This document shows, piece by piece, positions 39,483-50,519 of a DNA stretch of 64,000 nt. The translations under genes were made by a program, and so were the position numbers. The stretch lies in the sequence record NC_027395.1; one strand, 5' to 3'. Every line of letters starts with the position of its first letter. Positions within the stretch are counted from its first letter, which is position 1. The notes below the pieces were generated by a model that was not told where the DNA came from, ran no database searches, and saw only the letters and a list, made by a program, of their open reading frames with translations. The stretch is from Escherichia phage vB_EcoP_SU10.

Positions 39483-41327
39483 TTAGTGTGTATGCATCCA
39501 GTTAAGTCCAATCTGACAATCAGATGCCAGAGGACATTCCATGTTCAGATACTCGCCAGCTTTCTTAACACAAAGCTCAGTGTGCTCTTTGAGTTTCTGT
39601 ACATCATTACGGTTTACTGAGAATTGACCTTCATCGTGCATATCAATTACCTTAGCACAACGAACCTTATCTTTCTCAATCCACTTGTTAAGGAACATCA
39701 TAGCATATTTCATAACAACAGCACCAGCACATTGCAGGAGTGTGTTAAGGGCTTTATGAACCATAACCTTACCAGTGGCATCCCGTCTCATTGTAATCTT
39801 ACGACCATCAACTCCAATCAAGTATCCTTGAGCAGCTTTCTCTGTCATACGATCAATGAGGATTGCAATACATGGGTTCTCTGCTAAGAAACGTGCTCGC
39901 ATCACTGAACCTTCGTCAGCCCCACCACCTACAATTGAACCAAGCTTAGCATCGCCAGCACCGTAGTTGAATGCATAGATAAACGTTTTAGCGTTGTCAC
40001 GAGTAGGAAGACCAGCAAGTTTCTGGTTATGGGAGTGGATATCACCTTCAAGGAGAATATCACGATACATAATAGCAGAAGCTAAACCACGTTCTGCCAG
40101 AGCTTTCTTAGCTGGGTTGTTCTCTTCTATTGCCTCAGCAAGCATATCCCTACACTCTTTAATGAGGTAGTGAGCTAGCATACGAAGTTCAAGTCCAGAA
40201 CCATCATACCCTAAGAACACTTCTTTACCAGCGGGTATGTAATATTTGTAAGCACCTATAGGTTTGTCTTTCTTCCCCGGCTTACCTTTCTCGTAAATTA
40301 CGTTAGTACCTTTTCGTATATAACAACCATCAGGAACAACGTTAGTAATAACGAAAGGACGAGAGTGATCACTGTCTGAGTTATAGTCAGACTCAAACAA
40401 ACTGCGACACTCGTGACCAAACAGACCACGGGAGGGAATATTAACCACGATACGATGTTTGAATCGAAAAGTCGGCGTAGCGCAGCTGTTAGCTTCTGCC
40501 GAAAGTTTACCATCTTCGCGTTCCTTTGCTATAAGTCCACTGATAAGACCTAGCCTGTGAGCCGCTACAACGCGTCTCTTAAGCAAACTTCCGACACTCC
40601 CTAGCTCACCCCCTAACCCTTCTTCAAGAGTCTCCTCGAGGTTTGTAGGAGCTGTAGGCCACTTGTTTGATGTGGCTAGTGCTTTCTTAATCTCATCAAA
40701 CGTTACAGGATTACGGCGATTAGGGTTCAACCCCAAACCAAATACGTAAGCCTTCATGTAATTCTTAGTCTTAAACCTGAAATGCTTTTCTAAGAACTTC
40801 TTAATATCAGCGTCAACCATCTCGGCTGTCTGCTTCTGCTTAGCATTGCCTCGCATCCAAGCAGTATACCATGCTTGGTATGTTCCATACTTTCTCATAT
40901 CTTTCTTAATTTCGAAAGTATTCCAAGGCTTCTTAGACACGTTAAACTCTGGAGGAAGAAAGCCCTCATCCATAAGAGCTTCTTTAACTCGTGCATCTTT
41001 CGATGGGTCAAAGTCTACGTATTCAACACAGGTGAAAGCTCCACCAATATCTTCTCTCTTCAGCCCAACCCTATCACAATAGGCTTGAGGCCACTTCTGT
41101 AAAGCTCCAGACTTCTTAAACGGCTTCATGTAAGTAGAGCCGTCTAATCTCATCTTAGGTAAGAGAGGAATCAACTCTCTGTCAATATTAACAATAATCT
41201 CTTTAAGGAGGTGAACATACCACCGAGCATTTCTTCGGTTGAAACTCACTCCGTGCTTTGCTTGCTTAGAGATTATATCAGCGACAGTCATCTCTGTCAA
41301 AAATGGAAGAGCGTCCGGGTTGCTCAC
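39483..41327 (-). CDS. DNA polymerase, family A (polymerase domain only)
   Basis: Motif A LGYDGSGLELR, motif B RDNAKTFIYAFNYGAG, motif C MHDEGQ. Confidence 0.85.
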   Translation of the reverse strand: MSNPDALPFLTEMTVADIISKQAKHGVSFNRRNARWYVHLLKEIIVNIDRELIPLLPKMRLDGSTYMKPFKKSGALQKWPQAYCDRVGLKREDIGGAFTCVEYVDFDPSKDARVKEALMDEGFLPPEFNVSKKPWNTFEIKKDMRKYGTYQAWYTAWMRGNAKQKQTAEMVDADIKKFLEKHFRFKTKNYMKAYVFGLGLNPNRRNPVTFDEIKKALATSNKWPTAPTNLEETLEEGLGGELGSVGSLLKRRVVAAHRLGLISGLIAKEREDGKLSAEANSCATPTFRFKHRIVVNIPSRGLFGHECRSLFESDYNSDSDHSRPFVITNVVPDGCYIRKGTNVIYEKGKPGKKDKPIGAYKYYIPAGKEVFLGYDGSGLELRMLAHYLIKECRDMLAEAIEENNPAKKALAERGLASAIMYRDILLEGDIHSHNQKLAGLPTRDNAKTFIYAFNYGAGDAKLGSIVGGGADEGSVMRARFLAENPCIAILIDRMTEKAAQGYLIGVDGRKITMRRDATGKVMVHKALNTLLQCAGAVVMKYAMMFLNKWIEKDKVRCAKVIDMHDEGQFSVNRNDVQKLKEHTELCVKKAGEYLNMECPLASDCQIGLNWMHTH

Positions 41328-41343
41328 TTTATACTCCTTTAAA

Positions 41344-41757
41344 TTATTGGTAAAGTAAATCTGTAAATGCTTGGTTATCTTCTACTACATCCAATGATGT
41401 GGAATCAACAGCATATGACCTCATTGCTGCATTTGTTTGTGCCCAAGTAGATGGAGAATAAGAAGACCTAATCTCACGAGGCTGCTCTCGTACCAGATGG
41501 GCCACAACCCTCTGATTAGCAACTTCTTCTCTTTCTCTGATAGCTCTCTGAATGTAGGCCAGCTTCATGCCCCAAGCTTCTTCAAACTCTTGAGGGTGTT
41601 TATCACTGATAACCACATATTGACGTTCAGGAATACCAGAGCGAATTTCTGACAATAATTCATGGAACAAATCCAGTTCGTGCTCAGTGAGATTCATTTC
41701 GATATCATCCCACTTGAGAACTAAGAAACGGTTTTGGTGTCTAGCTGGTAATGGCAT
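41344..41757 (-). CDS. Hypothetical protein (137 aa)
   Basis: ORF only. Confidence 0.5.
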   Translation of the reverse strand: MPLPARHQNRFLVLKWDDIEMNLTEHELDLFHELLSEIRSGIPERQYVVISDKHPQEFEEAWGMKLAYIQRAIREREEVANQRVVAHLVREQPREIRSSYSPSTWAQTNAAMRSYAVDSTSLDVVEDNQAFTDLLYQ

Positions 41758-41760
41758 AAC

Positions 41761-42045
41761 TCAACCTCTTGGGAATGGCATCAAAAATTCCACAGCAGAT
41801 TTAATTTCATTATTGATTCTTGAATCACGATAAGAGATAAACTTACCTTTGCTATCACGTAACATCACATTAGTTCTGGCTGTTTTGTGAGGGAGTAATG
41901 TGACACTAGTTGGAATAGCATCAACCCCTACAGCGTATTTGTCAATAGTCTTACTTTCAGCCAACAGATAAGACCAAGTACGCGGTTTCTGCTCCGGGCG
42001 GTTAGGGTATGTGTCCCGAATCTGAACCATAGCTAACTTATTCAT
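41761..42045 (-). CDS. Small protein, tandem paralog A (94 aa)
   Basis: Shares TARTNV.LR..GKFISY...AVE.L.PFP.G with the adjacent gene. Confidence 0.5.
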   Translation of the reverse strand: MNKLAMVQIRDTYPNRPEQKPRTWSYLLAESKTIDKYAVGVDAIPTSVTLLPHKTARTNVMLRDSKGKFISYRDSRINNEIKSAVEFLMPFPRG

Positions 42046-48580: not shown

Positions 48581-48589
48581 TCTTATTCC

Positions 48590-49960
48590 TTAGTTATTTG
48601 TTTCTACGTCAAAAGAGATTCCACGACCCGCTTCATCAGCAAACCGAACTGTACGGGTTTGAGGTTCTAATACTTCAGGGTTGTTAGTAATAAAGCGATC
48701 AGCGAGACTGCGGCTGACAGCCTCAGCGAGTTCCTCATGAGAAGGAGTATCAAGATCGGAGAGACTGCCTACCACATCTTGGGCCACACCTTCATCAGTC
48801 CACACAGCCCTAACAGGTGCGTTGATATCACCAACAGCGAAACCCTGACCAGAGAACTGACGTGCACTAACGTTGAAGCCGTTTGGTCTACCACGAGAAG
48901 GACTAGCCATCCATCTCTCCATAGAATCACTTGTAATACCAAGAGCTTCTTCAAAAGATGTTCTACGAGTAGGGCTTACTCTTCGTGACTCTTGTGCTCG
49001 ACGCATTGCAGGGGCTACAAACACCCCTTCAATTGCATTGTGTCGGTTAGGTTCCTCTTCTCGACCAAGCAGATCACCACCCGTGTTAGTCGTTAAATTT
49101 GTCAACCCCTCAGACCAATACGCATGAATCTGACCAGAACCGTGAAGACTAGACATAATCTGAATCTCTTCATAAGGGATTCCAAAGAATCGACTCATGT
49201 CTCGGTTGACACAATATAGAGCACTTGTTGTATCTTCAATAAGAGAAACCTGACCTAATCCATTGACTAGATGACTAACTGGCTGAGGTGTGGGAAGATA
49301 TCGAGTTTGGGCCATGTATTGATGTGCAACTGCTGGAGAGGAAAATCTCAACACTTGTGAGTTAGGCCACTTCTTGTGAACATACCTGATTTCACGACTA
49401 GAGACAACCACTGGACAAGGGGAAGTCATAGCCAAATATCCGTGAGAAGTCATGAATAAGTTGTCAAGAGTCATCGCACCACGGCACATCATAGGAAAAT
49501 TATCCAATACCTCTTCAATAGAAGTAGGATAATTAAACATGAATTGGATACGAACCCCATTCCACTGAAACTCAATAATATCAGTGAATGTTAATTGAGA
49601 ACCCCCAGCATAGGATTCGTTTGTAGCTTCAGCAAGAAGTGATGCATATTCAATATCTTGTGACTCTAGCCATTCCTTCACATTACTTTCAATCTCCCGT
49701 CCAAGCTCTTGCCAACGATCAGTTGGGATGAAAGTGTTTTGAGTTCTTGGTGTTTGTCCTCTGACAATAAAGATATCAATGTCATGTGGAGCTATGTTAT
49801 TAAGGACAGCATCACGAACAGCCCCACCAGTAATGATGGGACAGATACCATCTGGAATCAAGTTGTTGTTAATCAACTGTTCAATGAAGTGACGACCAAC
49901 AGTGATATCAGGTTGTTGAGCAACCTTATCTTCAATTTGGTTAATCGGGATAACAATCAT
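48590..49960 (-). CDS. Nucleotidyltransferase of CCA-adding/poly(A) polymerase type (start at MIVIPINQ)
   Basis: N-terminal ITGGAVRDAVLNNIAPHDIDIFIV (GGxVRD...DxD head-domain signature). Confidence 0.65.
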   Translation of the reverse strand: MIVIPINQIEDKVAQQPDITVGRHFIEQLINNNLIPDGICPIITGGAVRDAVLNNIAPHDIDIFIVRGQTPRTQNTFIPTDRWQELGREIESNVKEWLESQDIEYASLLAEATNESYAGGSQLTFTDIIEFQWNGVRIQFMFNYPTSIEEVLDNFPMMCRGAMTLDNLFMTSHGYLAMTSPCPVVVSSREIRYVHKKWPNSQVLRFSSPAVAHQYMAQTRYLPTPQPVSHLVNGLGQVSLIEDTTSALYCVNRDMSRFFGIPYEEIQIMSSLHGSGQIHAYWSEGLTNLTTNTGGDLLGREEEPNRHNAIEGVFVAPAMRRAQESRRVSPTRRTSFEEALGITSDSMERWMASPSRGRPNGFNVSARQFSGQGFAVGDINAPVRAVWTDEGVAQDVVGSLSDLDTPSHEELAEAVSRSLADRFITNNPEVLEPQTRTVRFADEAGRGISFDVETNN

Positions 49961-49961
49961 T

Positions 49962-50519
49962 TTACATTTTCCAATATAATGAAGGTGGGTCGTAAGGGTC
50001 AAATCCCGTGAGTTCACACAAGAAAAGATAAACCTTAACAGTTAAGTTAACGTCCTGTTCACAATAAGTAAACATATCTTCAGTGAAAGCATCCCATGCT
50101 TCCTCTTGCTCACCATAATCGCCCTTAAGCTCTCCTAAGAACTCACCCCACTGCTTCAAACCATGACCTCTTGGGCCACGTCTAGGGTCGCCTTTCGGAT
50201 ACTCAGGACTGTCACCAATACGGTCAGGTTTAAGATATCGACTAAGACATAAAGTGTCAAAGACGTTAAAATTATATTTAATCAAAGAGGGATACATCTT
50301 TTTCAGAGCAGGTAAGTCGAAGTCAATAATATTATGACCCACTAGTACATCTGCTTCTGTAAGTTTACGAATCCCATCTTCAATTTGGTGAGGCCGATAG
50401 CCCCACCTTTCACCAGTTTCAACATCAAAGATATAAATACACCATACTTTAGTTATGTCATCGTACAGTGCATTACTCTCGATATCGAATGCAAACACTT
50501 TCTTCTTTTTCTTTACCAC
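49962..50519 (-). CDS. 3'-5' exonuclease (DnaQ-like), separate from polymerase
   Basis: Exo I FAFDIESN and Exo [12 protein letters not shown] motifs. Confidence 0.75.

Follow-up and report, generated by a model that had tools for sequence, protein, structure and literature searches.

How is a replicative DNA polymerase proofread when its polymerase and exonuclease parts are encoded by separate and distant genes? This question is raised by a locus of Escherichia phage vB_EcoP_SU10 (sequence record NC_027395.1), from which a stretch of 64,000 nucleotides, hereafter the window, was analysed. A first-pass annotation had described here a split replicative polymerase, consisting of a family A polymerase open reading frame (ORF) with motifs A, B and C and without an exonuclease domain, and of a separate exonuclease ORF with Exo I and Exo II motifs, about 8.6 kb away and beside the primase-helicase gene. 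Both ORFs are present at the annotated positions, on the minus strand, the polymerase at 39483-41327 (614 aa) and the exonuclease at 49962-50519 (185 aa), and the gap between them measures 8,634 bp (41328-49961). The sequence comparisons described below identify the two ORFs as the two halves of one T7-type enzyme.

The split itself is already known and is not a discovery of this work. PMC9965538 states it for phage YF01 and every Kuravirus-like phage, and PMC3517423 for phiEco32 and the LUZ24 group; GenBank record PQ850614 (Bas91) labels the pair 'DNA polymerase' and 'DNA polymerase exonuclease subunit', and LUZ24-type records use 'DNA polymerase part I' and 'part II'. What our analysis adds is small, namely the common break column, the ancestral position of the exonuclease gene, the reading of the gap as cargo, the clade-specific insertions in the polymerase and the selection estimates. 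The polymerase gene has 98-99% nucleotide identity to about 40 sequenced coliphages of roughly 76-78 kb (including KM01, TH06, YF01, Bas91 and CHD5UKE1), and CHD5UKE1 is classified as Gordonclarkvirinae, Kuravirus, Kuravirus SU10. Therefore, judged by this gene, the window belongs to a phiEco32/SU10-like C3 podophage of the genus Kuravirus, a further isolate of that group.

The polymerase and exonuclease ORFs

The 614-aa ORF was assigned by Pfam, PHROG and AlphaFold2 (AF2)/Foldseek results to a family A DNA polymerase subunit comprising thumb, palm and fingers. The Pfam family DNA_pol_A matched only residues 361-611 (E 2.5e-23), and the three polymerase motifs align to those of T7 gene product 5 (gp5): motif A, D375-GSGLELR (DxSxxE type, D375-GSGLE380), to D475; motif B, R443-DNAK447-TFIY451-AFNYG, to R518/K522/Y526; and motif C, H564-D565-E566, to D654/E655. 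All three are invariant across 58 homologues, and the terminal residue His614 aligns to His704, the C-terminal His of the T7 type. T7 gp5 is also the nearest solved relative (E 1.2e-32). The AF2 model, with a predicted local distance difference test (pLDDT) score of 91.5, has the right-hand Pol I fold of family A and is closest to T7 gp5, which accounts for all of the top 27 Protein Data Bank matches in Foldseek (E 1e-25, TMq 0.57); the large fragments of Bst, Klenow and Taq come next.

An exonuclease domain inside this ORF, the finding that the first-pass annotation had named as counter to its claim, was looked for by HMM, profile and fold comparison, and none of these showed exonuclease homology. 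No Pfam exonuclease family matched anywhere in the 614 aa, and residues 1-360, scanned alone against Pfam at E ≤ 1, gave a chance match to a domain of unknown function (DUF) and no exonuclease. When the polymerase profile (58 homologues) was aligned by hhalign with the exonuclease profile (52 homologues), the probability was 0.1%. A cryptic exonuclease in the polymerase N-terminus was thus ruled out; the ORF starts at the thumb, and the 3'-5' exonuclease domain that would normally precede it is supplied by the separate gene.

That gene encodes a 3'-5' proofreading exonuclease subunit according to Pfam, PHROG, phmmer and AF2/Foldseek. Its best Pfam family is DNA_pol_A_exo1 (E 1.3e-8), its PHROG matches (38876/403) are described as 'DNA polymerase exonuclease subunit', and phmmer aligned it to residues 3-178 of T7 gp5 (E 1.5e-12). 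The annotated Exo I and Exo II motifs were located at D12-I-E14, aligned to T7 D5/E7, and N63-IIDF-D68, aligned to T7 D65, and an Exo III motif, Y152-CEQ-D156 (Yx3D), was found in addition, aligned to the T7 YNVQD motif. The predicted catalytic residues are D12, E14, D68, Y152 and D156. Among 52 stand-alone exonuclease homologues D12, E14, N63, D68 and D156 are invariant and Y152 is present in at least 90%. The AF2 model (pLDDT 94.2) is predicted to have the RNase H-like fold of a polymerase proofreading domain, and the top 27 Foldseek matches were all the N-terminal domain of T7 gp5 (E down to 3e-11, 27-30% identity, TMq up to 0.72). From their motifs, both halves appear catalytically intact.

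The name 'DnaQ-like' given to this exonuclease at first pass holds at the superfamily level, but it does not hold in the narrower sense of the DnaQ-epsilon type, since both sequence and fold are those of the T7 gp5 N-terminal domain. DnaQ/epsilon enzymes of the DEDDh class carry an Exo III motif of the form Hx4D, and that of the window exonuclease is Yx3D, which by sequence makes it a DEDDy proofreading domain of the PolA/T7 gp5 type. An NCBIfam scan of the exonuclease gave no DnaQ match.

The two proteins account for consecutive parts of one enzyme. In the phrog_17 profile the exonuclease covers positions 667-826 and the polymerase 836-1233, and in T7 gp5 they align to residues 3-178 and about 295-704, respectively. 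A single sequence was also made by placing the exonuclease before the polymerase, and it was aligned with T7 gp5 and two fused environmental relatives, P0115 and P0116, which are 607 and 618 aa long, have the exonuclease as well as the polymerase Pfam domain and align with about two-thirds of the polymerase (43% identity). The joined sequence is collinear with all three. The alignment with the fused proteins places the junction in the short stretch that links the last helix of the exonuclease to the first helix of the thumb; the exonuclease ORF retains a linker-like tail of 12 residues, and the polymerase ORF starts right at the thumb. It is because of these consecutive stretches and this end-to-end alignment that we regard the two ORFs, and with them the split polymerase proposed at first pass, as halves of one T7-type enzyme.

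T7 gp5 is the best solved-structure match for both halves and shares with them the Exo I-III motifs, motifs A-C, the motif B Tyr at Y526, the C-terminal His and a gp4-type primase-helicase encoded upstream. Unlike the window enzyme, it is a single polypeptide of 704 aa, has a thioredoxin-binding loop about 25 residues longer, and is without an insertion of about 88 aa in the thumb and another of about 45 aa before motif A.

Purifying selection on the two genes is strong. The ratio of nonsynonymous to synonymous substitution (dN/dS), estimated against Suseptimavirus 101114UKE3, was 0.063 for the exonuclease and 0.086 for the polymerase, values that are qualitative only because dS is near saturation, and that are similar to those of neighbouring essential genes.

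The exonuclease gene adjoins the primase-helicase gene (50513-52303), as had been annotated; its GTG start overlaps the primase-helicase stop by 7 nt (overlap sequence …CCGTGGTAA) and GGAG lies upstream, which together suggest that it is translationally coupled to that gene. The polymerase likewise starts with GTG, 7 nt after the Shine-Dalgarno (SD) sequence AAAGGAG. RefSeq NC_070989 gives the homologous polymerase 36 nt shorter, from an internal ATG (Met13; window position 41291 instead of 41327), and the Bas91 annotation begins at the upstream GTG. The longer form is favoured, since a strong SD precedes the GTG and residues 8-12 (PF..E) are conserved among the polymerase homologues, with E12 invariant in 58. 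Within codons 10-19 of this ORF there is also a perfect sigma-70 consensus promoter (41272-41300, minus strand; TTGACA-17 nt-TATAAT) with a TG extended -10 element, the sole such site in the window, where 0.02 would be expected by chance. Its -10 element is fixed by the conserved coding of D-I-I. As for the -35 element, the window and Bas91 have it and 101114UKE3, L006 (a Kuravirus-like metagenome contig) and GAP52 do not, and for that reason it may be a lineage-specific accident.

Distribution and history of the split

About 96 phage records contain the exonuclease at ≥60% identity and about 97 contain the polymerase at ≥80% identity, which fits strict co-inheritance of the two genes. The same arrangement, with the exonuclease after the primase-helicase, the polymerase downstream on the same strand and the break at the linker between exonuclease and thumb, occurs in about 95 phages that were sequenced independently and extends to more distant genera. 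It is identical in Bas91, CHD5UKE1, 101114UKE3 and the metagenome contigs L006/L007, and homologous in Cronobacter phage GAP52 and Pseudomonas phage tf, whose polymerases are 47% and 39% identical to that of the window. In YF01 the same genes are gp49 (polymerase) and gp70 (3'-5' exonuclease), and in Bas91 they are Bas91_0047 and Bas91_0068. These Kuravirus relatives show no difference of substance from the window; the polymerase gene is 99% identical in nucleotides, and gene order and lengths (1845 and 558 nt) are the same.

In the window, GAP52 and tf the break falls at the same alignment column, and the gene order is common to all three: primase-helicase, overlapping exonuclease, intervening genes, polymerase and, further on, a 5'-3' exonuclease. 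The pair gp28 and gp38 of tf ('part I' and 'part II') is a homologous split; its polymerase identity of 39% extends over the full length. The tf-like arrangement differs in a shorter polymerase (about 545 aa) and in a gap of only about 2.1 kb, which contains small ORFs and a holin and is without nucleotide-metabolism genes. The gap is about 8.5 kb in GAP52, with partly different content including NrdD/NrdG, and 8.3-8.6 kb in Kuravirus-like genomes. LUZ24 differs from the window in having an intron in the polymerase gene. Since the break point is common to GAP52 and tf, the most economical history suggested by the alignments would be that the phiEco32-like, GAP52/7-11-like and LUZ24-like phages go back to a common ancestor in which the gene was split once, long ago, and that the cargo entered between the halves afterwards.

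A sample of 80 IMG/VR loci encoding relatives of the exonuclease was used for a wider view. Exonuclease and polymerase were fused in 60 loci and split in 12, mostly as adjacent or overlapping ORFs, and 8 had no polymerase within reach. In 70 of the 80, whether fused or split, a same-strand primase-helicase match was found just upstream, with a median of 71 nt in between. Because these loci are mostly fused, the place of the window exonuclease beside the primase-helicase can be identified by this comparison as the ancestral T7-like gp4-gp5 order. The idea of a new exonuclease-helicase partnership, based on the adjacency of the genes, was rejected on the ground that fused enzymes have the same order.

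The two polymerase insertions were aligned in the same way. The first, helical and about 88 aa long, lies in the thumb (residues ~133-222), and the second, beta-rich and about 45 aa long, precedes motif A (residues ~318-368); both are modelled with pLDDT around 90 or higher. They are common to the three split polymerases of the window, GAP52 and tf, being shorter in tf, and are absent from T7 and the fused relatives. Insertions of this kind were considered as a hallmark of split enzymes generally, and this was rejected: independently split environmental relatives, with adjacent exonuclease (~171 aa) and polymerase (~435-470 aa) ORFs, are without them. The insertions are therefore a marker of the clade and not something that a split enzyme needs.

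Some further interruptions were seen among relatives. In several environmental T7-like contigs of the IMG/VR sample (L067, L082, L084, L086 and others) the exonuclease (~171 aa) and polymerase (~440-470 aa) ORFs overlap by up to about 100 nt in different frames, which could reflect independent fissions, programmed frameshifts or sequencing errors. The contigs L006 and L007, whose polymerase is 88% identical to that of the window, carry a group I intron (L006:11354-11617; Rfam RF00028, 102 bits) that interrupts motif B after ...KTFIYAFN, so that gene callers give pieces of 454 and 139 aa. The 460-aa entry of BUCT695 ends inside the same motif, and the polymerase gene of the window is uninterrupted. 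In the primase-helicase region of L006 (1-1150) an HNH/NUMOD4 endonuclease ORF is followed by a 260-aa ORF with DnaB_C only, which suggests that homing-endonuclease insertions also disrupt the primase-helicase gene in some relatives.

Possible reassembly and proofreading in trans

The account that we regard, as a whole, as probable runs as follows. In an ancestral gene of the T7 gp5 type, the linker that connects the 3'-5' exonuclease domain to the thumb would have been the point of the split. The exonuclease half would have kept the usual starting place of gp5, right behind the primase-helicase gene, to which its translation would be coupled, and the polymerase half would have gained its own ribosome-binding site and start codon. 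Accessory and nucleotide-metabolism genes would have accumulated between the halves, leaving the polymerase 8.6 kb downstream. The two products would come together again non-covalently as a two-subunit holoenzyme, and within it the exonuclease subunit would proofread the primer end passed on by the polymerase subunit, like the domains within T7 gp5, and the phage thioredoxin may be a further processivity subunit.

Two known systems resemble parts of this proposal. In the core of E. coli Pol III, the alpha subunit (DnaE) is without an exonuclease and is proofread in trans by a small bound DEDD subunit, epsilon (DnaQ). That enzyme differs from the window pair in being a family C polymerase with a DEDDh epsilon, whereas the window exonuclease is of the DEDDy class and derived from family A. 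It has been reported, from biochemistry and cryo-EM, that the split family B polymerase of PhiKZ (DNAP-N + DNAP-C) forms a stable 1:1 complex (PMC13648687). PhiKZ thus also encodes its replicative polymerase in two genes and is a precedent for the proposed reassembly, but it belongs to family B, its split is not homologous, and its proteins and accessory factor (Rhc) are different.

The thioredoxin is encoded at 45746-46021 on the minus strand (91 aa; Pfam Thioredoxin E 1.1e-13; NCBIfam thioredoxin). T7 uses the thioredoxin of its host, whereas the window phage encodes its own, which by analogy may be a candidate processivity factor for the polymerase. Such a role has been hypothesised for the related phage Privateer (PMC7881722).

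Several observations weigh against this account. No report of binding between exonuclease and polymerase, or of proofreading in trans, was found in the literature for this or for the LUZ24-type split enzyme. The polymerase keeps a counterpart of the T7 thioredoxin-binding loop, but at about 25 residues shorter it makes the thioredoxin role doubtful. Terminator-like hairpins lie between the exonuclease and polymerase genes, so the two may be on different transcripts; a sigma-70/terminator scan gave no enrichment over shuffled sequences and no firm operon map.

The strongest alternative, which we consider unlikely but well worth weighing, is that the polymerase works alone as a naturally exonuclease-deficient enzyme and that the 185-aa exonuclease acts independently, without a stable complex. 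Independent tasks proposed for it are the processing of ends in recombination or repair, degradation of host DNA, and trimming of primers or flaps at the helicase. The missing interaction reports and the distance of 8.6 kb with hairpins in between agree with this, as does the coupling of the exonuclease to the primase-helicase gene and not to the polymerase gene. Against it, the exonuclease is closest in sequence and fold to the T7 gp5 proofreading domain and not to stand-alone nucleases, and it retains the linker segment that follows this domain in fused enzymes. Its adjacency to the primase-helicase is the ancestral gp4-gp5 order, seen in fused forms as well, and both genes co-occur across the whole clade. 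Of the two possibilities raised at first pass, proofreading in trans is favoured over an exonuclease-deficient polymerase because the catalytic residues are intact, purifying selection is strong and the genes strictly co-occur, though sequence alone cannot settle the choice.

It is also conceivable, at rather long odds, that the split itself is functional. The exonuclease would then be made in step with the primase-helicase, owing to the overlap of stop and start codons, in a transcription unit separate from that of the polymerase, so that the phage would be able to change the ratio of exonuclease to polymerase in the course of infection and could switch between a high-fidelity holoenzyme and an exonuclease-free polymerase that is strand-displacing or lesion-tolerant. 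The insertions at residues ~133-222 and ~318-368 might dock the exonuclease or the thioredoxin.

It is very improbable that trans-splicing introns, a split intein or ribosomal bypassing produce a single polypeptide from the two ORFs. The parts of LUZ24-type enzymes have loosely been termed 'exons' (PMC3890496), and the polymerase gene of relatives does contain a group I intron, but this lies inside motif B and not at the junction of exonuclease and polymerase. Joining was rejected since both ORFs have complete translation signals: the exonuclease ORF has a stop codon and consists entirely of the exonuclease domain and linker, and the polymerase ORF, which opens exactly with the thumb, has a GTG start preceded by a strong SD of its own. 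Spare sequence for half an intein is missing from both ORFs, a scan of the whole window against Rfam gave nothing that attained a family's gathering score, and about 25 conserved same-strand genes separate the two. Finally, that the exonuclease ORF is a decaying remnant of a rearrangement, or the split an artefact of assembly, has nothing in its favour but the unusual arrangement itself and is hardly credible, being already refuted by the dN/dS of 0.063, the invariant catalytic residues and the same arrangement in so many independently sequenced phages and more distant genera.

Neighbouring genes and significance of the split

From about 30 kb onward, where the GC skew flips, the replication and nucleotide-metabolism genes of the window are all on the minus strand. 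The gene immediately upstream of the exonuclease encodes a T7 gp4-type primase-helicase of 596 aa (Pfam DnaB_C and Toprim_2; phrog_239, E 1e-175), which has an acidic C-terminal tail with Trp as its last residue. Further upstream lie a gamma-glutamyl cyclotransferase (52523-52942, minus strand) and a RimK-like ATP-grasp protein (53644-54846, minus strand), annotated in relatives as a ribosomal protein S6 glutaminyl transferase. This pair is also found upstream of the primase-helicase gene in tf, and thus the synteny with LUZ24-like phages reaches beyond the replication genes.

The genes between the halves (41328-49961, minus strand) were identified by Pfam and PHROG matches and the Bas91 annotation. 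They encode a nucleotidyltransferase, dCTP deaminase, a Dps/ferritin-like DNA-binding protein, the thioredoxin, ThyX, a protein with an NAD-ligase Ia-like domain, PhoH and many small ORFs, and we read this region as nucleotide-metabolism and accessory cargo inserted between the halves. The nucleotidyltransferase (48590-49957, minus strand; about 453 aa; phrog_12715, with a weak match to the Pfam PolyA_pol head domain, E 0.002) lies directly 3' of the exonuclease gene, with its ATG 2 nt past the exonuclease stop. The gene is conserved among Kuravirus-like genomes; in tf a Pol-beta-like nucleotidyltransferase is encoded at another place within the replication module. The 109-aa ligase ORF (43952-44281, minus strand) is a stand-alone N-terminal Ia domain of an NAD-dependent ligase (Pfam Nlig-Ia, E 2e-35), annotated as 'DNA ligase' in Bas91 although it is without an adenylation domain, and represents another lone domain of a normally multidomain replication enzyme.

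Downstream of the polymerase, a 5'-3' exonuclease of the FEN/T7 gp6-like kind is encoded at 31260-32102 on the minus strand (phrog_107 'exonuclease', E 7.9e-65; a weak match to Pfam 5_3_exonuc_N, E 6.9e-6, is under the gathering score). A third Pol I-type activity is thus encoded as its own gene. YF01 likewise has a separate 5'-3' exonuclease, gp27 (PMC9965538).

The split represents a textbook-style case of gene fission in a multidomain replication enzyme. It is useful as a marker of taxonomy and synteny for phiEco32-like, GAP52/7-11-like and LUZ24-like podophages. It would carry biological weight only in one of two cases: if the exonuclease-free polymerase, a T7-type enzyme that is exo-minus by nature and has Tyr where T7 has Y526, the residue of dideoxynucleotide discrimination, proved to have useful properties, or if the detached exonuclease proved to be a regulated fidelity module.

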